From: Oligoflexales bacterium
Lineage (GTDB): Bacteria; Bdellovibrionota_B; Oligoflexia; Oligoflexales; RGVZ01
Direction: 5' to 3'
Length of the DNA stretch: 64,000 nucleotides
NCBI GenBank assembly: GCA_044360315.1
Contig: JBIKKO010000003.1
Span: 1,301-65,300, forward strand
The position numbers and the translations under genes were made by a program. The notes beneath the pieces are model-generated. The model saw only the letters and a program-made list of their open reading frames with translations, had not been told where the DNA came from and ran no database searches. The number at the start of each line of letters is the position of its first letter. Position 1 is the first letter of the stretch. Below, piece by piece: positions 9,297 to 20,299 of this stretch.

Positions 9297-9420
9297 TTTA
9301 TCTCATCAAATGGCATCATTTTTTTAAGGATAGCTTTGTGGTGATTCGGTCATCTCCAACTTAACATCGATCATTGTTAGGTATGTTGTTTTGAACAAAT
9401 CAAATTCAAGGAGATCTGAA

Positions 9421-9822
9421 ATGGTAAAGACATCTTTATGTGCAATGGGTTTATTGTTGGCCAGTGGAATGTCGTATGCCGCAGTGCCTGATTATGCAGG
9501 TTGTACCGAGTCTGACTACGTAACGATCGATCAGCCCGAAATCACAATCGAGTTTCAAGGTTCTAGCTATAAGCCTGCTTGCATCAAAGTAAAGAAAGGC
9601 ACAAAAGTGATTATTCCAGCAAGCAATAGACACCCGCTCCAAGCGGCCCAGGATTTTGACGGCGTCGTCAACCCTTTGAGGTTAGAAGGTGCTGATCATC
9701 GAGAGAACCAAACTCTGATCGCGGAAATGTCTGGGTTTTACGGTTACTACTGTACGCGCCACGCAGATTCTCATGATGGAAGCGGGATGGGTGGAATGAT
9801 CTGGGTAACCGATGGTTATTGA
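9421..9822 (+). CDS. cupredoxin (plastocyanin/azurin-family type-1 copper protein), secreted
   Basis: AAGGAG at 9408-9413 precedes ATG 9421. Signal peptide MVKTSLCAMGLLLASGMSYA. C-terminal copper-ligand pattern YYCTRH....GMGGMIWV, plus an upstream His (NRHPL). Confidence 0.75.
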   Translation: MVKTSLCAMGLLLASGMSYAAVPDYAGCTESDYVTIDQPEITIEFQGSSYKPACIKVKKGTKVIIPASNRHPLQAAQDFDGVVNPLRLEGADHRENQTLIAEMSGFYGYYCTRHADSHDGSGMGGMIWVTDGY

Positions 9823-11997: not shown

Positions 11998-12576
11998 CTA
12001 GTCGCGGTGGACGTGAACGATACCTATCGGTTCGTGTGACAAGGCAACTTGGGCTTGCTTGATTAGGCTTACCTGCTCGGCAGAGAGATCTGTTCTTGTC
12101 TGTAGGTAGCGATCGGCGGATGCGGTGTTTAATTCAAAAATACCGTCGTCCCCCTCTTTGTTTTTGCCATAGGTAATTTTGCACGCAAAATTACGCTCGT
12201 CTCCAGTGCAATCAGCCGAAGCCATAGGGGTGTTGTCACCAGCATATTCCTTGGTAGCAAGCTTCCAGGATCCTTCCTGGAACGTTCCGTTCATAGAGAA
12301 ACTCTTTGGACTAGTGCCATCAAGTTCTCGTGGCAAACGGTAGCGAAATGTTGCCTCTTCGCCGTTGGATTTAATATTAAATCTTGCGTGTCGGAGGCTT
12401 ACATAAACTGGTTCAGAAAGGTGCTGACCAGCAGGGACTTCGTAGAACATCTCTCCTTGGTTTACCGGATTACTGTCATCTTCCCGGGCGACTAGGGGGA
12501 GAGCCAGGAGGCAGGGCCCTAACAAAGCGACTGTCAAGGCACATCGGGTTGATGATCCGCTTTTAAACTGTTTCAT
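11998..12576 (-). CDS. hypothetical secreted protein
   Basis: 192 aa with a signal-like N-terminus (CALTVALLGPCLLALPLVA). No family recognised. Confidence 0.6.
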   Translation of the reverse strand: MKQFKSGSSTRCALTVALLGPCLLALPLVAREDDSNPVNQGEMFYEVPAGQHLSEPVYVSLRHARFNIKSNGEEATFRYRLPRELDGTSPKSFSMNGTFQEGSWKLATKEYAGDNTPMASADCTGDERNFACKITYGKNKEGDDGIFELNTASADRYLQTRTDLSAEQVSLIKQAQVALSHEPIGIVHVHRD

Positions 12577-12643: not shown

Positions 12644-13627
12644 TTACCATGTCATTGTGGCGCCGGCGGATTGTGAGCGGCTCTGCTTTGTTTCAATACA
12701 AAGACGCGCAATCCAAAAGGTAAACACATAACCGCCCGAAATTAAATAAACATGTAGAGTTTGGGCGAGTTGCACGCCTAGCACTTCAAGAAATCCACTT
12801 ACTCCAATAAGGGACCAGATTTGCCAAGGAGTAAGCGGTAGGACGCCGCCTAGGTGGGCGTGAGCAAGCAGGACCCCTCCAAAAGCAGTTAGTCCTGATG
12901 TGATCACCCAATGTGGCCCAAGCACTGCAAAACACAAAGCACTTGGTAGCAGAGCAGAGGCTGCAATAAACGCCGCATTTCGGCGTGCAAAGACCATCAC
13001 CGTTAGGAATATGGCAACTGCGGTTTTCCAATCATTTGAAAAAAAGATCTGGCCAAAACCCATCAAACTGCCAAACAGCGCTTGAGTCCATTCTTGTTCA
13101 AACGGGGACGCGGCTAAGGTGGACGGGATAAACGTCCAGGCAGTTGAAGCTTGAGTTAAAAGTTGGAAGGACCAAAACGTTAGGCAGTAGGGAAAGACGA
13201 TTGGTGGCAAGTCCCATGTCTTTAGGAATCGATCGACTGCAATGACAAAGATCACGCCTAGCCCGGCAAATAATCCTATGGCTAGCAGCGTCTGCGATGA
13301 GGGTCCAAGGACTGTAGCAAGTGCAAGTCCTAGGAACATGCCATTGAGTGCAAATAGACGTGTTTGCCGTAGTGGTTTATTTTGGGAAAACTTACGACTG
13401 ATCAGCTCAGCCGAGAGTGCTCCGAAAGATCCGAATAGAAAGATCTTAGGGCTTAAAATCAAAAGGACGCAAGCAAGAACTCGGCCCATGGTTTGGTTTG
13501 GCGAAAAAAACGTATCCGCCAACGCAAGCGTTAGAGTCCGTTCGGCAGATTGTAGTGTCCTCCAAAGACCCAGCAGCATATCTTGGAGGGTTGAAGTGTG
13601 TTCAGCGGTTTTTACAGCATGTGCCAT
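12644..13627 (-). CDS. urea-transporter (UT) family channel-like membrane protein
   Basis: The ORF track starts at TTG 13657; ATG 13627 overlaps the upstream stop by 16 nt. About 10 TM helices with a two-fold internal repeat (FFSPNQTMGRVLACVLL / QIFFSNDWKTAVAIFL; LFALNGMFLGLALAT / LTAFGGVLLAHAHLG). LPPIVFPYCLTFW resembles the UT LPxxTxPFVLxTW motif. Motifs recalled from memory. Confidence 0.5.
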   Translation of the reverse strand: MAHAVKTAEHTSTLQDMLLGLWRTLQSAERTLTLALADTFFSPNQTMGRVLACVLLILSPKIFLFGSFGALSAELISRKFSQNKPLRQTRLFALNGMFLGLALATVLGPSSQTLLAIGLFAGLGVIFVIAVDRFLKTWDLPPIVFPYCLTFWSFQLLTQASTAWTFIPSTLAASPFEQEWTQALFGSLMGFGQIFFSNDWKTAVAIFLTVMVFARRNAAFIAASALLPSALCFAVLGPHWVITSGLTAFGGVLLAHAHLGGVLPLTPWQIWSLIGVSGFLEVLGVQLAQTLHVYLISGGYVFTFWIARLCIETKQSRSQSAGATMTW

Positions 13628-14241
13628 TGATCTAATCCTATTCTGATGTTTCCCCAAGTGAGCATGCGATTTGAACGGATGTTGACGCCGATGACGTTAT
13701 TGATACCCCGTTCTAGGTATGGCTCAATCCAAACCCCTTCTGTAGGGTCAAACAGCCTTACGTGATCCGTCGCTAAATCAACCATGGCCGAGACTTCGTG
13801 GTACACATATTGATCCTCAATCCATGGGAGGCGTCCCCTGACTTTATTCCACTTGACCCGCCATTGCTCGGTCATCGATTTCGGTTGATCTAAAATGACT
13901 TGAGCCGGGAAAACCTCGAAGTCGTTGCGATTGTTTCTTGCAATCTGATGCTCAAAGATCTCGAGGGAAAAGGCAGCAAACACGCCGCAATCGATACTCT
14001 GTAACTGCACAGCATCACACCAGCCAAGCGGCCATTGCACTGGTCCCCATTTGTAGTGGCGTTTAAGCCAAAGAGGTGCTTGGATCCTTTGCTGTTCGGT
14101 CCGTGAAAATATCATCGACCTGTGCATGTTGTGTAACCACTGTCTGGCAAGGTCGCAACACGTTCCGTGATGTGTGAGGGTTGAATGCCGTATCCCAACA
14201 AAGTTACATTGAGGGGCTGACACGGCCATAGCCAAATGCAT
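13612..14241 (-). CDS. transglutaminase-core-like Cys/His/Asp protein (putative thiol amidase/transferase)
   Basis: ATG 14241 is preceded by AAGGAG with 8-nt spacing, located inside the last 38 nt of the upstream gene. IDCGVFAAFSLEIF ... YVYHEVSAMV ... LFDPTEGVW matches the order and spacing of the transglutaminase-like catalytic Cys, His and Asp. Confidence 0.5.
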   Translation of the reverse strand: MHLAMAVSAPQCNFVGIRHSTLTHHGTCCDLARQWLHNMHRSMIFSRTEQQRIQAPLWLKRHYKWGPVQWPLGWCDAVQLQSIDCGVFAAFSLEIFEHQIARNNRNDFEVFPAQVILDQPKSMTEQWRVKWNKVRGRLPWIEDQYVYHEVSAMVDLATDHVRLFDPTEGVWIEPYLERGINNVIGVNIRSNRMLTWGNIRIGLDQWHML

Positions 14242-16450
14242 AACTCATACTCCTTTCATAAGCGCCCGCATCTGCGATGACAAGGCGATCTCCGATAGTT
14301 AGTGATTCGGGAAAATTGACTGAATCTGCTAAGATGTCGTCTTCCATGCAGATTCGTCCGAGCATGCGCGATTGGCCGGGACCCAGTGCGATTAGCTCTC
14401 CATTTTTTATGACGAACATGCGATGCGGATAGACCCTGGCAAGCGGTAATTCTGAAATGCAGGTATCAACCACGACGTCTTGAATGTGGCCGCGTTTCTT
14501 GCGGATATCTTGGACGCTCGTAATCATAATCGCAGTGTTTTGAGAAAGTGCGCGACCGGGTTCGATCACTACATGCTCAAGTGTAGGGATTTCGCGATGT
14601 AGAAACTCTAATATCGCTTTCCACTCAAACTTCTTTAAATCGCGCGGATGATAACCACCACCGAGATCCAGGATCGAAATGCTTCGTTGAGATTGCAGTG
14701 CTATAGTTTGAACCCAATGCACGGCGCTTTGGACGGCATCTTCCCAGTGACCGTTGCCAATGAGGTTTGATGCTAAGTGAATATGGAAGCCTAGTTTTAT
14801 GTCTTTTGGCATCTGCTCAATTAAGGTGACAAGCCTGCGTATATCGGCAAATGTGTCTAGCTCAGCGCCGAAGCGGGAATTGAATCCGGGGATCTTTAAA
14901 CGAAATCCCCAGGTTTTATCCCGACGCCCAGAAGCAAGCAGACGCGCGAACTCATCAGCAGAATCACAGAACACGGCCTTGAGCCCGGGATGGTGAACCA
15001 TGCTTCTTGGCCACCATTTCGCCGGCCCGTTTAAAATAATTTGTTCTGGCATCCAGCCCGTTGCAAGGGCTTTCTCCACCTCCGCCATGCTGATCGCTTC
15101 CGCGCTTAACCCGCGTTGAAATGCGGCATCAAGATACTCCTGCTCTGGGCTCGTTTTGATGCTGTAGGCAACGAGTAGCTTTGTCTGGTTACTCTTCAGT
15201 GTCATGAGTTCACTAGCATCTTTGAAGTTGTCGTCTATCAAACTGGAAATTGTGAGACGCTTAGGGGTTTGTTCGACGTGGGCAAGGGAGGCCTGCCACG
15301 CATTTTTTTCAGTTTTGTCTATCTCGAGTGACCGTGGCGACACTGCGGGCGTGTTGTCAGGATTTTCTTGGTCAATCAGCTTTTTCTCGAGCGTACCATA
15401 CGAAGCGCCGTATTTTCCTGTCATTCCGATGTCACCGTGGATCGGCTGCTGGACCTGCGGCAGAGACAAGGCCTTTAAAACGGGTATCTCCGTGACAACT
15501 CGCGTAAACTCGTTGGTAAGAGGTTTGACCGAGCCTCTTGGTTTGATGCCGTGACTGGCCTCGACAAGCATGGCCGGAAGGTTAAAGCCAGCAATCGTTG
15601 ACCCGTGAATCCATGCGGGGAATCGTGGGTTGAACTCCATGAGCCAGTATTGATCAGACTCATCGCGAATGAGCTCTAATTCTCCACCTCCTGTCCAGTT
15701 GATTGTCTTTAGTACGTCAGCTAGTAGACCATATTGAGCATCTGAGAGTGGGCGGACTTTCCCTGACCATGTCTTGCCTTCAGGCGTGATCACGCGTTTT
15801 TGCATGTGTACGGCACCGCATAGTTTTCCTTGGAATGCGGCAAAGCAGATCGACTCTTCAACCCCTCGAATATGCTGTTGATATGACACCTGGCGAAGCT
15901 TTCCGTCGGGGTTAAAACTATCTCTTGCGCGAGTTAGGTCGCGCCAGCTTGCAGCAAACTTTGCGCCATGGAATGCTCCCTTTACCCAAACTCGCCATGA
16001 CTGGTCACGGCAAAAGTCAAACAGTTCTTGATCATCACCTTGATCAAGATAGATCTTAGGGCGCTTAAATGGAAGAAGTTCGCCAATGCGGATAAATGGT
16101 TTCTCAGCGTATGACAAAGCGTTCTGATCTGGCATAAGAAAGTTAGCACTGGGTTTGATTTTCTTTGTGAGCCAGCTGATCTCAATGTCTAGAGCTGAGA
16201 TTAACTGATGGTCTTGGGCGTATTTTTTCAATGTGTCAACGTGATTGTCGAGATCGAGGATATCCCATGATGGAAAGACGAGGCGTTCGGATAAACAGTC
16301 GTCGTGAAGACCTGATGATCCGCTCCAATAGTCCATGCCGATGATTTTGGCAGAGGACCATGCAGCGCGCAAGGACTTGGCAATGCCCAGTCCTGCCGAT
16401 GGGCTAGGTCCACTGTAGAAACCTGAAATCAAAAACTTTAAATCACTCAT
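14204..16450 (-). CDS. bifunctional ATP-grasp ligase / fold-III PLP-dependent (Orn/DAP/Arg-type) decarboxylase fusion
   Basis: 748 aa. The N-terminal ~320 aa carry ATP-grasp hallmarks (WRVWVKGAFHG, QQHIRGVEESICF, GGGELELIRDESDQYWLMEFNPRFPAW). The C-terminal ~400 aa carry decarboxylase hallmarks (AYSIKTSP with the PLP Lys, HIHLASN, ILDLGGGYHP, EPGRALS, GRICMEDDIL, AGAYERSMSYAFG). AGAGGAG RBS upstream of ATG 16450. Confidence 0.8.
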   Translation of the reverse strand: MSDLKFLISGFYSGPSPSAGLGIAKSLRAAWSSAKIIGMDYWSGSSGLHDDCLSERLVFPSWDILDLDNHVDTLKKYAQDHQLISALDIEISWLTKKIKPSANFLMPDQNALSYAEKPFIRIGELLPFKRPKIYLDQGDDQELFDFCRDQSWRVWVKGAFHGAKFAASWRDLTRARDSFNPDGKLRQVSYQQHIRGVEESICFAAFQGKLCGAVHMQKRVITPEGKTWSGKVRPLSDAQYGLLADVLKTINWTGGGELELIRDESDQYWLMEFNPRFPAWIHGSTIAGFNLPAMLVEASHGIKPRGSVKPLTNEFTRVVTEIPVLKALSLPQVQQPIHGDIGMTGKYGASYGTLEKKLIDQENPDNTPAVSPRSLEIDKTEKNAWQASLAHVEQTPKRLTISSLIDDNFKDASELMTLKSNQTKLLVAYSIKTSPEQEYLDAAFQRGLSAEAISMAEVEKALATGWMPEQIILNGPAKWWPRSMVHHPGLKAVFCDSADEFARLLASGRRDKTWGFRLKIPGFNSRFGAELDTFADIRRLVTLIEQMPKDIKLGFHIHLASNLIGNGHWEDAVQSAVHWVQTIALQSQRSISILDLGGGYHPRDLKKFEWKAILEFLHREIPTLEHVVIEPGRALSQNTAIMITSVQDIRKKRGHIQDVVVDTCISELPLARVYPHRMFVIKNGELIALGPGQSRMLGRICMEDDILADSVNFPESLTIGDRLVIADAGAYERSMSYAFGYGRVSPSM

Positions 16451-16584
16451 GTTGATTGTTCTCCTCTAAGTGTCAGCCTCATCACGTGAATCATAATGAC
16501 GGATAGTCTTGGTGATTGGCTACCCAAGTGGTATGAAGAAAATGAAGGGATTTGTGAGGGGAAACCGGAGGCGTAGCTAAATAT

Positions 16585-17013
16585 ATGAAATCATTTAAAT
16601 TTAAGCCAGTTCTTCAGGAACACGCCATGGGCTGCGGGTTGGCTTGTGTTGCGTATCTTGCCAAGAGGTCATATCGCGCCGCATTGGCGTCAGTGGAAAA
16701 ACCTGAAAGGGCTTGGACCCGCGGCTTTTACTGTCCCGAGTTGGTGGCATTATTGCAGTCCTTTGGATTGAAGTATGGTTGGAAGGCTAAGCGGGGTCGC
16801 GCAGCAGGATTTGTTGAGGGCGACATTTTGATCGGAAGTATCGTATTTTTAGGGCCATGCAAAGAGTACCCTCAAGGTCACTTCATGGTGAAGGTGGGTT
16901 CTGGTTTGTACATGAACCCTTGGCTTAATTTTCCCTCGATCCGGGCGGCAAAGGCTGGGTTTACACGGCGGATGATTGGCTCTATTACCCACGTGATTTT
17001 TCCACTGGAGTGA
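16585..17013 (+). CDS. stand-alone peptidase C39-like (papain-fold) domain protein
   Basis: 142 aa. Q-x5-GCGLACVAYLA (oxyanion Gln plus catalytic Cys) and the downstream GHFMVKV His motif, as in bacteriocin-processing C39 / BtrH_N-like domains. Confidence 0.6.
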   Translation: MKSFKFKPVLQEHAMGCGLACVAYLAKRSYRAALASVEKPERAWTRGFYCPELVALLQSFGLKYGWKAKRGRAAGFVEGDILIGSIVFLGPCKEYPQGHFMVKVGSGLYMNPWLNFPSIRAAKAGFTRRMIGSITHVIFPLE

Positions 17014-17180
17014 CAGCTAGGGCCAAGGTATGTCCCTATGCCTGGGTGAGAGAGTATTCTTATCCGTTCAAATCCCTTCAAACGTTTAGGGCAATGTTAG
17101 TCGTTGATCTCGCGAGTATTCGCTATGTTGGTATTGCGGGCGAATCATTGTCCGCAAAAACCATGAATAGGAGTTTATAT

Positions 17181-17753
17181 ATGCGACTAAGAGTGAAGTC
17201 AGTGACAATGGCCTCGATGATGATGGGTTTGTATGCGGTAAGTAGCTGCGGAGCGGATTCCGCGAAAGGAATACTCGGAGGCAAGAGCTCATCAGCACTC
17301 CAAGCTGAAGGCGGCCGCGAGCGTGAATACGAAAATGAAAGAGAGCAAGAGAACGAGCAAGAGAACGAGCAAGAGAACGAGCAAGAGAACGAGCAAGAGA
17401 ACGAGCAAGAGCAAGAGAACGAGCGAGAAGGTCGTGAGGATCAGGGTCGCCGCGATGATGATCGCGCCTCGTCCGGTCGCATTCAATCACCCGGCGATCA
17501 ATCGGCTCAGATTGGCGCCTCCGTTGAATTCACGATTCAGAAGACGCGTTCTCGCGACGACGATGTATACACATTCTCAGCGACCGGTTTGCCGGCCGGC
17601 CTAACTATCGAGGCTGCGACTGGTAAAGTTTCTGGCGTTGTCTCTGCTGCAGCTGGGGCCTATGCGGTCGAGGTTAAGGCAACTAAGCCAAGCAGCCGGG
17701 GAACTCATGTCGATACGTATGTCGTCAAATTTTCTTTCGTGATCACGCCGTAA
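17181..17753 (+). CDS. lipoprotein with acidic (ENEQ)n tract and C-terminal putative Ig-like domain
   Basis: The ORF track starts at 17010. AGGAG (17169-17173) lies 7 nt before ATG 17181, giving MRLRVKSVTMASMMMGLYAVSSC|G (lipobox). Next come the EQEN repeats, then FSATGLPAGLTIEAATGKVSGVV, typical of the putative-Ig (He_PIG-like) domain. Confidence 0.65.
   Translation: MRLRVKSVTMASMMMGLYAVSSCGADSAKGILGGKSSSALQAEGGREREYENEREQENEQENEQENEQENEQENEQEQENEREGREDQGRRDDDRASSGRIQSPGDQSAQIGASVEFTIQKTRSRDDDVYTFSATGLPAGLTIEAATGKVSGVVSAAAGAYAVEVKATKPSSRGTHVDTYVVKFSFVITP
17343..17420 (+). repeat. in-frame 12-bp tandem repeat GAGCAAGAGAAC (5 perfect units plus one unit with a 6-bp internal duplication)
   Basis: Read directly: units at 17343, 17355, 17367, 17379 and 17391, then GAGCAAGAGCAAGAGAAC at 17403-17420. 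It encodes (EQEN)n. Confidence 0.95.
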
Positions 17754-17813
17754 CATTCGCTGGTCATGTGTGCTCAGACGTGTTTTTTTGGGGCGCTATA
17801 GCGTCGCCTCTTT

Positions 17814-17847
17814 GGGAGCGGGTTGTGAGACCCGCTCCCGAGTTTTT
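17814..17847 (+). terminator. rho-independent terminator after the lipoprotein gene
   Basis: Perfect 10-bp stem GGGAGCGGGT-tgtgag-ACCCGCTCCC followed by gag-TTTTT. Confidence 0.75.
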
Positions 17848-17905: not shown

Positions 17906-18349
17906 CTACTTTAAGCAACCTGCTTTTCTGAACTCCGATTCGATATTGATTTTTTGGTCAGAACACACTAACCCGTAACGCCACATGTCATGCTTTCCAA
18001 AGTCTTGCTCAGACCACAAAACTTCGAGCGGTATCTGGCGCTCTCCAATATGTAAAATGGCCTTGCTGCCTACGGCAATCTGTGTGTCGCATACGATACC
18101 AAGCCCATGGGCACTGACATCGAGAGGCTTTGCATCCACGTCCTTCTGGTCAACGACAAACCTGCCGGGCATCAACCCCGTCAAGCGTTTACGATCACTG
18201 ATGCGTCGTTCTTTAAGTTTTAGCTGATAACCTGGCATTGTGATGTCCCTCCCTAAACCCGTCATCAGAGTCGAGCAACCTTGTCGTCCCCAATCAAGGA
18301 GAGATTCGGCAGTCGCGACTTGGAGCTGAGGAAGGTTTTTTTTGGTCAT
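17906..18349 (-). CDS. PilZ-domain c-di-GMP-binding protein
   Basis: 147 aa with RRISDR (RxxxR) followed by LDVSAHGLG (DxSxxG). Confidence 0.75.
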   Translation of the reverse strand: MTKKNLPQLQVATAESLLDWGRQGCSTLMTGLGRDITMPGYQLKLKERRISDRKRLTGLMPGRFVVDQKDVDAKPLDVSAHGLGIVCDTQIAVGSKAILHIGERQIPLEVLWSEQDFGKHDMWRYGLVCSDQKINIESEFRKAGCLK

Positions 18350-18550
18350 AGAAACAGATAGTTACGGGGGTAATTACGTTCACGAGTTCCGACCTCAGAT
18401 CGTTGCGCTCCTCTCTGGCAACGATTCCCGTTCAAGACTGCAGCAGACTTTTAAGGTTTGCTGACAGTTTGATCTTGCAGGGCATGATTTTAGGCAGTAT
18501 CTCCAATGGCATGTGCTTCGGTTTGGTTAGATCATTGGCGGGGTGTTCGC

Positions 18551-20299
18551 ATGGTTGGAATGGTGCAGTTGACAGTCATTTTGTTGGTTCTAGTTTCATG
18601 TCTACGTCCCAGTGGAGCAGTGGTTAGGGTGGTCGGTGGCCAACCGGTTTCCGAGCACAGGCCATGGTTTGTTCAGCTCCTAGATACGGCCCAGTCGTCC
18701 AGAGGCTTTTGCGGTGGTGCACTGGTTGAGGCCCGGGTCGTGATCACCGCGGCCCATTGTATTGATGCTGAGACCATAAACACGTTGCATGTGGCTCTTG
18801 GGTTTGCCGATGGCAATCATCTAAATGTGAATCATCCTGTGAAGGTTCAGGGCGTTATGGTTCATCCCCAGTATGACCCATCTGATGTCGCCTTCGACAT
18901 CGCTGTGCTTTATCTTGAAGACTATGCGGACGCGCAGTTTGAACGGCCCGTTGTTCCTATTCAGTACGCTCGCGATGTTGATCTTCCTGAACGTCTTCAC
19001 CAGCAAGCTCTGGTGATCGGGCTTGGTAATTTGACCTCCATTGGATCTATTTATGATAGTGCGGTCCATGAGGTCGAGGTCCCGTTGCTAACAAAAGATC
19101 TATGTAAGGACATGTTTCCTGACGTGCAAGAATCGACAATCTGTGCTGGCGACCTAACATCGGGTGGTCGTGACAGCTGCCAAGGAGATAGTGGTGGTCC
19201 CATGGTTGCTATGAACAGCAATGGGCAGCTGGAACTTGTGGGCATTGTAAGTCAAGGGGAGGGTTGCGCACAAAAGGAGTCTCCAGGGCTTTATGTGCGG
19301 GTTGCGTCTCATGCAGAGTTTATTGCCGATGCCACGGAAGACTTGACTCCGGAAATCACAGAGCCGGTGGTACCACACGATTTACAGAAGCTTCTGATGA
19401 CCAGGTGCTTGTCTCAGTTTACGTCTATTCCAATAAATCAATCGGACTTAGCAAGTCATTCGCGGACGACAACATTCAGCGTTGATCTTCGTGGTTTTGA
19501 ATTGATGCCTAACGATGAGTTGCCCGTTGGGCGTGTTGTAAACACCTGCCATGTTGTTGAGGGAGATTTGAGGGTCGAGGCAAGCTGGGTGTTGCACGGC
19601 TCAGAAGCCTTAACATCGCGCTCCAAAATTAAGGTTTTTGTCCGCATCAACGGTCAATGGACTCTGGGGTCAAAGGCGCTAAAATTAAAATATCAACAGG
19701 ACACTCTGCTGTGTGCCACCTCCCAGGGGCTGGTGATGTTGGCCGATCAAAGGCGTCAAACGTATGTGATGTTTCGTGATGTCCTTTATAGATTGGGAGA
19801 GCCCGCTGTGCATCCAGGTGATAGTCAGGTGACTTGGGGATGCTCGGTTGGGGATGCGTCAATCGAGGTTTATGAGATTGCGTTAGGTGGATCTGCAAGG
19901 CAGCTTGCTGCGCGCATTCATCATAAAAGTATAGGGACCGTTTCTGTGGCTTTGATACGAAAGGATCGGGATGCTGGTGTTGCAGCGACGCTCAAGGTGC
20001 CGCAGGGCGATACGAAGGGTACTTTGTCCCTACTAAATTTCTCTGATCGTGACCTCTTCACGTGGAGAATGAATTGCCCAGGGCCATTTTCTATAACAAC
20101 GATCGCGGGGGATATTCGCTCGGCGAGGCTAATGGAATCAGGCACGGGATATAGTGTGCTGTTTGATGCAGCTCGCGATCCAGAGGGGCAGCTGATGCGA
20201 GCGTCATCTCTGGTGCTGGAGGTCGAAGCGTCCACCGTGTCGGCACTTGAGGCCTGTGTGATTAACGATGTGATTAATGTTCAGCTAGAGTCATTGTAA
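18551..20299 (+). CDS. secreted trypsin-like (S1) serine protease with ~340-aa uncharacterised C-terminal extension
   Basis: Signal-like MVGMVQLTVILLVLVSCL, then VVGGQPV. Catalytic triad motifs ITAAHC, DIAVLYL and CQGDSGGPMV. The ORF track starts at 18506. Confidence 0.85.
   Translation: MVGMVQLTVILLVLVSCLRPSGAVVRVVGGQPVSEHRPWFVQLLDTAQSSRGFCGGALVEARVVITAAHCIDAETINTLHVALGFADGNHLNVNHPVKVQGVMVHPQYDPSDVAFDIAVLYLEDYADAQFERPVVPIQYARDVDLPERLHQQALVIGLGNLTSIGSIYDSAVHEVEVPLLTKDLCKDMFPDVQESTICAGDLTSGGRDSCQGDSGGPMVAMNSNGQLELVGIVSQGEGCAQKESPGLYVRVASHAEFIADATEDLTPEITEPVVPHDLQKLLMTRCLSQFTSIPINQSDLASHSRTTTFSVDLRGFELMPNDELPVGRVVNTCHVVEGDLRVEASWVLHGSEALTSRSKIKVFVRINGQWTLGSKALKLKYQQDTLLCATSQGLVMLADQRRQTYVMFRDVLYRLGEPAVHPGDSQVTWGCSVGDASIEVYEIALGGSARQLAARIHHKSIGTVSVALIRKDRDAGVAATLKVPQGDTKGTLSLLNFSDRDLFTWRMNCPGPFSITTIAGDIRSARLMESGTGYSVLFDAARDPEGQLMRASSLVLEVEASTVSALEACVINDVINVQLESL

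Follow-up and report, generated by a model that had tools for sequence, protein, structure and literature searches.

We analyzed a 64,000-nucleotide stretch of contig JBIKKO010000003.1 from an Oligoflexales bacterium (hereafter the window) and focused on three overlapping minus-strand genes at 12644-16450. They encode a fusion of an ATP-grasp domain with a pyridoxal 5'-phosphate (PLP)-dependent decarboxylase domain (748 amino acids, aa), a 209-aa protein without a Pfam model, and a homologue of the UT (urea transporter) channels. The three genes very probably form one functional module, since the same gene order recurs in distant lineages, and the module probably makes and moves a small metabolite. 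We propose, tentatively, that the ATP-grasp domain ligates a carboxylate to an amino acid, that the conjugate is decarboxylated, and that the 209-aa protein acts on the product. The fusion itself is a real, large and coherent protein family that carries no specific name.

Gene linkage and spread of the module

Linkage was counted by running family hidden Markov models (HMMs) against the six-frame open reading frames (ORFs) of 85 related loci and the window, and the counts for the 209-aa gene and for the gene after the unfused pair take only loci with room for one. A gene of the 209-aa family lies directly after the fusion in 56 of 57 loci and usually overlaps it. The sole exception, L069, matches the decarboxylase half only. 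The linkage spans Oligoflexia, Acidobacteriota, Alpha-, Beta- and Gammaproteobacteria, Actinomycetota, Methylomirabilota, Verrucomicrobiota, Chloroflexota and a Bathyarchaeia metagenome-assembled genome (MAG). The overlapping trio was also present on three further long contigs, one of them from a Polyangiaceae MAG. These counts bear out the proposal of an earlier, sequence-only reading of this DNA that the three genes on the minus strand act together as a cassette, and they show that the cassette is conserved. The UT gene belongs to one subtype.

Three metagenomic proteins join the parts physically, and for each of them a frameshift artefact is possible. P0255 (L006:290-3124, 944 aa) carries the ATP-grasp, decarboxylase and 209-aa domains in one chain, P0197 joins the 209-aa domain to a UT domain, and P0278 joins it to a GNAT acetyltransferase. 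Beyond the module, clustering of ORFs within 5 kb of the fusion gave no extra gene common to all loci. The neighbors in cultured strains are heterogeneous and include aminotransferase V, YcaO, aldehyde dehydrogenase, B12-radical SAM and major facilitator superfamily genes. Because the flanks differ completely from locus to locus, the three-gene unit is self-contained. PADLOC returned no anti-phage defence match for the six proteins submitted, and an Rfam scan that took in the window together with eight cassette loci returned one tRNA only and no riboswitch.

The gene boundaries are close-packed. The start codon of the 209-aa gene, an ATG, falls 38 nt inside the fusion gene and has AAAGGAG 8 nt upstream. 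The UT gene, counted from the ATG at 13627, shares 16 nt with the 209-aa gene; the mechanical ORF of the UT gene reaches further, to a TTG at 13657 (12644-13657, 337 aa). An automated gene call in the source metagenome (P0121, 167 aa) drops the first 42 residues of the 209-aa protein. The long start is nevertheless the correct one, because residues H25, C28 and C29 in the omitted stretch are conserved throughout the family. In the fusion, a poorly conserved linker joins the two domains, and the translation holds LMEFNPRFPAW, AYSIKT, LDLGGGY, EPGRAL, CMEDD and AGAYERSMS. All five ORFs of the sequence-only reading, these motifs, both overlaps and the 134-bp divergent gap upstream of the fusion were recovered as it had described them (Table 1).

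A protein search with the fusion returned at least 448 full-length matches (protein clusters) of about 750 aa. The best 120 of these at least 448 matches are all about 750 aa long; their identity to the query is 37-70%, over 95-100% of its length. In a scan that used one genome per species, relatives were found in at least 591 species genomes. Among the matches listed, the closest come from one MAG of Oligoflexales (57%) and one of Pseudobacteriovorax (46%), both Oligoflexia, and many others belong to Pyrinomonadaceae and Allosphingosinicella. Cultured carriers include Collimonas antrihumi, Collimonas sp. OK307, Pseudomonas akapageensis, Actinokineospora enzanensis and a Streptomyces. One match lies on a linear plasmid of Streptomyces zaomyceticus (RefSeq), where the fusion and the gene after it each carry the label 'hypothetical protein'.

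The sources name the fusion homologues only 'hypothetical protein', 'ATP-grasp domain-containing protein' or 'diaminopimelate decarboxylase'. NCBIfam offers no specific name for the proteins of the module, every match being far below the curated cut-offs. Literature searches found no paper on the ATP-grasp::decarboxylase fusion architecture and no characterized homologue, in agreement with the earlier view that the architecture is uncharacterized.

Ligase and decarboxylase domains of the fusion

The decarboxylase half was identified directly by Pfam, with 59.2 bits for Orn_Arg_deC_N (5e-16, cut-off 23.4) and 30.9 bits for Orn_DAP_Arg_deC (3e-7, cut-off 23). Across 22 diverse members there is no variation at K432 (the PLP lysine), H556/H558 (HxH), G597-G599 (the Gly-rich phosphate loop), E630-P631-G632, C701 (the catalytic Cys) or the C-terminal Y731. 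Among solved structures the window domain is closest to 7kh2, the N-citrylornithine decarboxylase FigC/FslC (1e-18), ahead of diaminopimelate decarboxylase (DAPDC) at 2e-12. An unfused homologue of the domain likewise matched FigC/FslC (3e-59) ahead of DAPDCs. The NCBIfam FslC model scored the fusion at 72.5 bits against a cut-off of 500, and the domain is therefore not an FslC orthologue.

The active-site motif indicates which kind of substrate may be used. C701-M702 of the fusion aligns with C354-M355 of FigC, and the Cys-Met pair is present in all complete family decarboxylases that could be scored, across 75 loci and in both fused and unfused forms, as CME[DH]D in the former and CMNID in the latter. 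In FigC, M355 stands in for the aspartate that binds the free side-chain amine in ornithine, arginine and diaminopimelate decarboxylases (PMC7857480). The FigC clade includes SbnH, AcsE, MccE and BtrK, all of which act on conjugated substrates, and also DAPDCs and D-ornithine decarboxylase (PMC7857480).

The shared Cys-Met motif and the position of FigC/FslC as closest relative suggest that ligation most likely precedes decarboxylation. The sequence-only reading had assumed the opposite, with an amine made first and then ligated; the reverse order is more likely for a domain that is nearest to FigC/FslC and has the Cys-Met pair that marks decarboxylases of conjugates (PMC7857480). Since PLP-dependent decarboxylation needs a free alpha-amine, the ATP-grasp domain would have to attach its carboxylate at the side chain of the amino acid.

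Identification of the N-terminal half depended on the family rather than on the window protein. Searched alone, the first 400 aa of the fusion gave no match to a solved structure, and the window protein reached 22 bits with ATPgrasp_Ter, below the Pfam cut-off of 29.1. A profile of the N-terminal family, made from fused and unfused relatives, matched 2pn1 at 4e-15 and the large chain of carbamoyl phosphate synthase (CPS) at 1e-6. Weaker matches were to biotin carboxylases, PurK and Ddl, and urea amidolyase is also among the relatives. The unfused ATP-grasp homologues match PRK12767 at 4e-26 and pass the thresholds of ATPgrasp_Ter, CPSase_L_D2 and ATP-grasp_3. The Mg/ATP-binding residues K157, E272 and N274, the last two within ExNPRFPAW, are invariant across fused and unfused members.

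On these profile matches, the N-terminal half is classed as a divergent CPS/PRK12767-like ATP-grasp. The earlier description of it as a complete ATP-grasp module holds as far as the superfamily and the three invariant residues are concerned, but the window protein by itself does not pass the Pfam cut-off. Its closest solved relative, 2pn1, belongs to the PRK12767 'carbamoyl phosphate synthase-like' proteins and was deposited as 'Carbamoylphosphate synthase large subunit'. It is a stand-alone protein, whereas the window domain is fused; no specific reported function was found for 2pn1.

The relation to FigC/FslC also allows a different pathway, in which the module would make a siderophore or metallophore in the manner of NRPS-independent siderophore (NIS) synthesis, as for rhizoferrin, staphyloferrin B and vibrioferrin, with the ATP-grasp domain replacing the IucA/IucC synthetase. 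The closest characterized relative and the shared Cys-Met pair are consistent with this, and in vibrioferrin synthesis an ATP-grasp enzyme, PvsA, does work with a decarboxylase, PvsE. The logic of ligation followed by decarboxylation is shared with FigA/FigC (FslA/FslC) of rhizoferrin, SbnH of staphyloferrin B and AcsE of achromobactin (PMC7857480). The window differs from these systems in that its ligase is an ATP-grasp fused to the decarboxylase and not an IucA/IucC NIS synthetase, its partners are a thiol-enzyme candidate and a UT channel, sequence identity is low and siderophore transport genes are missing. Among the annotated neighbors in the window and ten other loci, no IucA/IucC, TonB receptor, exporter or iron context is conserved; a Plug/TonB receptor occurs in one locus only, 6 kb away. 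A passive UT channel, moreover, is no siderophore exporter. We consider a siderophore product very unlikely.

Partner enzyme, channel and proposed reactions

A full HMMER scan of 1.84 billion proteins gave 297 representatives of the 209-aa family. The 209-aa protein itself has no Pfam, NCBIfam or PDB sequence match. Conservation singles out a possible catalytic set: Cys85 is present in 115 of 117 family sequences (Ser in the other two), His148 in 116, Glu149 in all 117 and Asp165 in 111 (Asn in the other six). A second conserved cluster consists of H25, C28, C29 and C75.

An AlphaFold2 model based on a deep alignment reached a pLDDT of 92.4 and a pTM of 0.90. In this model C85 stands at the start of helix 85-102, with H148 within strand 145-155 and D165 at the end of strand 160-165. 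Foldseek searches with two independent models gave top matches of the same kind, namely vasohibin-1 and -2, the transglutaminase domain of Rad4/XPC, the putative cysteine protease 3isr, PNGase and the papain-like domain of MOA. The best match was vasohibin-2 (VASH2; E=8.5e-3, TM 0.26).

From the model, the 209-aa protein is probably a very divergent transglutaminase/papain-like thiol enzyme that falls outside Pfam Transglut_core, with Cys85, His148 and Asp165 as a putative hydrolase or transferase triad. The transglutaminase-like Cys/His/Asp arrangement that had been read from the sequence is supported, in that the residues are nearly invariant and the model geometry is compatible with a transglutaminase/papain-like fold. 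The fold matches themselves are weak, and a Pfam match is lacking.

One alternative is a carrier-free thiotemplated route. Here the ATP-grasp domain would load an amino acid, for example through the gamma-carboxyl of Glu, as a thioester on a cysteine of the 209-aa protein. The decarboxylase would then act on the bound thioester, as BtrK does on Glu-S-BtrI, and the 209-aa protein would transfer the acyl group to an amine, as do BtrH and CtaG. Butirosin synthesis uses the same three enzyme classes, with BtrJ (ATP-grasp), BtrK (a PLP decarboxylase of the same clade) and BtrH (a papain-like acyltransferase), and BtrK matches the window domain at E=3e-3 and an unfused homologue at 5e-29. In closthioamide synthesis, papain/transglutaminase-like ligases work with ATP-grasp enzymes (PMC7183216, PMC12865890), which is a further precedent. 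The second thiol cluster of the 209-aa family and the close physical coupling seen in the P0255 triple fusion also fit such a route.

Compared with the butirosin system, however, the window has neither the carrier BtrI nor BtrG, its match to BtrK is weak, and the 142-aa protein that recalls BtrH lies outside the module. No acyl or peptidyl carrier protein gene was found in any locus, and the window locus holds no conserved ORF of the size of an acyl carrier protein. Genes for making an acceptor are not conserved nearby. The partner in the unfused architecture described below is an M23 zinc peptidase, which is unable to carry an acyl-thioester. We consider a thiotemplated route unlikely.

The third gene product is a member of the UT family, as the sequence-only reading had supposed (Pfam UT, 6e-26, 91.7 bits against a cut-off of 25, profile positions 9-264 of 292), and it matches dvUT structures at 2e-5. 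It is divergent: with NCBIfam urea_trans_yut it scored 56.8 bits against a cut-off of 274.6 and is not a Yut orthologue by that model. The UT protein of the Collimonas cassette is canonical (Pfam UT, 9e-68). A UT gene comes next after the 209-aa gene in 12 of 51 fused loci, which fall in six lineages: Oligoflexia, Methylomirabilota, an Actinomycetota MAG, Collimonas, Pseudomonas and Streptomyces.

Two further observations concern the subtypes with and without a UT gene. The residue three positions after the catalytic Cys (fusion residues 701-705, window 14336-14350) gives CMEDD mostly in loci with a UT gene and CMEHD in loci without one; L020 and L045 are exceptions, and FigC carries His at this position. 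The UT-less CMEHD subtype (Pyrinomonadaceae and Allosphingosinicella; L005:6279-7733 and about 35 other loci) has a conserved divergent gene pair upstream. The pair encodes an enoyl-CoA hydratase and a 220-aa protein without a Pfam match, which has HRDHD and later FHG and is possibly a cupin-type oxygenase.

The UT link recurs in a second architecture. In sixteen loci (L070-L085), which belong to Bacteroidota, Marinimicrobia, Aquificota, Nitratiruptor and Accumulibacter, the counterpart of the whole fusion (23-25% identity) is split into two adjacent genes, one for an ATP-grasp protein of about 350 aa and one for a decarboxylase of about 450 aa. Wherever there is room for a further gene (15 of 15 loci), the pair is followed by one whose product, about 730 aa long, consists of UT, Peptidase_M23 and a poorly conserved C-terminal domain; L071:7974-12597 is an example of the whole set. 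The M23 metal ligands are conserved. No extra transmembrane segment separates UT from M23, so that on the known UT topology the peptidase domain should be cytoplasmic. In many of the unfused loci, genes for tetratricopeptide repeat proteins then follow.

A relaxed HMM search of the unfused loci found no member of the 209-aa family. The UT::M23 proteins' C-terminal domain was considered as a hidden 209-aa homologue and was rejected at an hhalign probability of 0.2. The link between ligase, decarboxylase, peptidase-like enzyme and UT must be old, because the quartet recurs with a different peptidase in the unfused form. The channel as a cassette member is thus a qualified case: it is an accessory of one fused subtype, but the association is real and has an independent counterpart in the unfused group. 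A 2026 survey of UT proteins lists UT::Peptidase_M23 as a previously unknown combination and assigns no function to it; ATP-grasp or decarboxylase has 0 occurrences in that survey (PMC12998343). Bacterial UT::Peptidase_M23 fusions resemble the window in linking UT to a peptidase-like enzyme and differ from it in that the window partner is a separate thiol enzyme and not M23.

The presence of UT might instead reflect urea-linked chemistry. A CPS/PurK-like ATP-grasp would carboxylate or acylate a nitrogen and so give an amino acid a ureido or acyl-urea link, decarboxylation would follow, the thiol or M23 amidase would later cleave the link, and UT would supply or remove urea or a close analogue. 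This fits the nearest characterized relatives of the ATP-grasp domain (CPS, biotin carboxylases, PurK and urea amidolyase), the canonical UT of Collimonas and the link of UT to the ATP-grasp/decarboxylase pair in two independent architectures. Two DUF1989 genes also lie about 5 kb downstream of the cassette in a UT-containing lineage (L003/L004:16885-18211), and DUF1989 is a family associated with urea or guanidine carboxylase. On the other hand, genes for urease, urea carboxylase or allophanate hydrolase do not recur consistently in the vicinity, UT is absent from most fused loci, and the window UT is divergent by both scores given above. We know of no pathway that uses such chemistry and regard it as improbable here.

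A broader idea is that UT channels are the outlet or inlet of an ATP-grasp/PLP-decarboxylase/amidase pathway to a new small neutral nitrogen metabolite, unrelated to urease. In one form of it the chemistry would run carrier-free on a thioester at the 209-aa cysteine, loaded by the ATP-grasp domain. To this we give a low probability.

The scheme that we prefer treats 12644-16450 as a self-contained metabolic module acting on common cytoplasmic metabolites. In the first step, the ATP-grasp domain would join a carboxylate to the side chain of an amino acid and leave the alpha-amino group free. The FigC-like domain would then remove the alpha-carboxylate of the conjugate to give an N-acyl (or O-acyl) amine, and the fusion would hand the intermediate straight from one domain to the other. 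In the third step, the Cys85/His148/Asp165 enzyme would cleave or transfer the amide of the decarboxylated conjugate, so that a small amine or amide is released and the carboxylate 'handle' is recycled; in the unfused version the M23 zinc peptidase would take its place. Finally, the UT-type channel would pass a small neutral solute, which could be the product, a urea-like substrate or a urea-like by-product. Family chemistry and the FigC-like active site are the grounds for steps one and two, and linkage for steps three and four. As a whole, we put the four-step scheme at somewhat less than an even chance.

Several points weigh against it. A cycle of ligation, decarboxylation and hydrolysis would spend ATP merely to decarboxylate an amino acid, for which a rationale is wanting. 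The nearest characterized relatives of the ATP-grasp domain (CPS, biotin carboxylases and PurK) form carboxyphosphate, and amide ligation is therefore not the sole chemistry it could perform. For the 209-aa protein, the fold matches are weak (best Foldseek E=8.5e-3, TM at most 0.37) and none is significant, and only single family members give marginal Pfam matches (0.084 for Transglut_core or 0.13 for DUF553). The scheme also assumes one and the same job for M23 and the 209-aa protein. In 39 of 51 fused loci there is no UT gene, so the channel is not essential to the core chemistry, and the pore in solved UT structures is narrow, which makes the fit of an acyl-diamine not obvious.

Neighboring genes and relation to known systems

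The features of the locus are collected in Table 1. Base composition across the window is 45-51% GC, with mostly positive GC skew. In the divergent region between the fusion and the C39-like gene, a single weak sigma-70-like match was found (plus strand, 16470-16497), no better than chance.

Table 1. Features of the module and adjacent genes in the window
Feature	Position	Strand	Basis
Fusion gene, 748 aa	14204-16450	-	ORF table; Pfam/NCBIfam matches
ATP-grasp domain, residues 1 to ~345 of fusion	15416..16450	-	family profile; invariant columns
PLP decarboxylase domain, residues ~395-748 of fusion	14204..15268	-	Pfam and 7kh2 match; alanine racemase (AR) fold
209-aa gene, predicted cytoplasmic product without Pfam model	13612-14241	-	ORF table
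UT-family channel homologue, 327 aa from ATG 13627	12644..13627	-	Pfam UT
Divergent intergenic region, 134 bp, presumed promoter site	16451-16584	.	sequence
C39-like gene, 142 aa	16585-17013	+	ORF table
ENEQ protein gene, mechanical ORF of 247 aa	17010-17753	+	ORF table
192-aa signal-peptide protein gene	11998..12576	-	67 nt downstream of UT gene
662-aa protein gene, C-terminal DeoR-type helix-turn-helix	9892..11880	+	HTH_DeoR 8e-9

The sequence-only reading had noted a C39-like peptidase gene divergent from the fusion. This gene lies divergently beside the cassette in L001, L007 and the P0287 contig, all of them close Oligoflexia relatives, and nowhere else, and we do not count it as part of the module. 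Its C39-like identity is tentative: the putative catalytic residues Q11, C17, H99 and N111 are invariant among three homologues only, and Peptidase_C39 stays below the Pfam cut-off (15 bits against 22, E=0.022). Seven homologues of the 142-aa protein were found, none with a precomputed Pfam domain. A 38%-identical homologue is encoded between Peptidase_M15 and Peptidase_S51 genes (L087:653-2480), and this context hints that the small family acts on dipeptide-like substrates.

The next gene encodes the acidic ENEQ protein. It likely starts at the ATG at 17181, which has AGGAG upstream and is followed by a lipobox (VSSC), and not at the GTG at 17010. The ENEQ tract is a perfect in-frame tandem repeat of 12 bp x 5.8 (unit GAGCAAGAGAAC, 17343-17411), and the perfect identity of its units suggests recent expansion or length variation. 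The lipoprotein also carries a C-terminal He_PIG Ig-like domain. A strong terminator-like hairpin of 14 pairs followed by a T-run (17811-17842) lies just after the gene.

Glu side chains of this lipoprotein had been put forward as a target of the ligase. That is not plausible: no homologue was found in any of the 85 related loci, and export is predicted for the protein, whereas none of the enzymes carries a signal peptide.

A more general form of the idea is protein or peptide tagging, in which the ATP-grasp domain would add an amino acid to a protein carboxylate (TTL/RimK-like), the decarboxylase would trim it to an amine and the vasohibin-like 209-aa protein would remove the tag. Vasohibin-2 is indeed the best Foldseek match of the 209-aa model, and vasohibins counteract TTL, which is an ATP-grasp enzyme. 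As MccE and BtrK show, large conjugates can be substrates of the decarboxylase clade (PMC7857480). No conserved candidate target gene lies beside the module, however, the ENEQ lipoprotein fails as a target for the reasons just given, and the link to UT argues for a small molecule. Glutathionylspermidine synthetase/amidase and TTL/vasohibin likewise pair an ATP-dependent amide ligase with a papain/transglutaminase-fold cysteine amidase that can reverse the bond. These systems act on glutathione and spermidine, or on tubulin, and have no decarboxylase step and no channel. We regard tagging as highly improbable.

On the other side of the module, homologues of the 192-aa signal-peptide protein and of the 662-aa protein adjoin the cassette in L001, L007 and L010, despite a rearrangement in L007. 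The 192-aa protein has no Pfam match; its gene is a possible fourth gene of the operon, in Oligoflexia only. The 662-aa DeoR-type protein is a candidate lineage-specific regulator. Further out, 9391-9822 encodes a 143-aa secreted protein that ends in YYCTRHADSHDGSGMGGM, which by eye resembles a cupredoxin copper site. At 17906-20299 lie genes for a 147-aa PilZ-domain protein, which falls slightly short of the Pfam cut-off, and for a secreted protease of the trypsin family (597 aa) whose C-terminal extension is long.

Ligation followed by decarboxylation is already known chemistry. What is new is the ATP-grasp::decarboxylase fusion, its obligatory Pfam-less partner family and the recurrent link to UT. 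The module is compact, with two or three genes, it is spread over at least ten phyla, and its components have been named only generically. A function for it would assign a role to a family of about 300 clusters not covered by any Pfam model. If our reading of steps one and two is true, an ATP-grasp route would be added to ligate-then-decarboxylate chemistry, which so far comes from NIS siderophores and butirosin. The module also bears on whether UT-type channels, including the UT::M23 fusions, carry solutes other than urea or serve pathways beyond urea catabolism.

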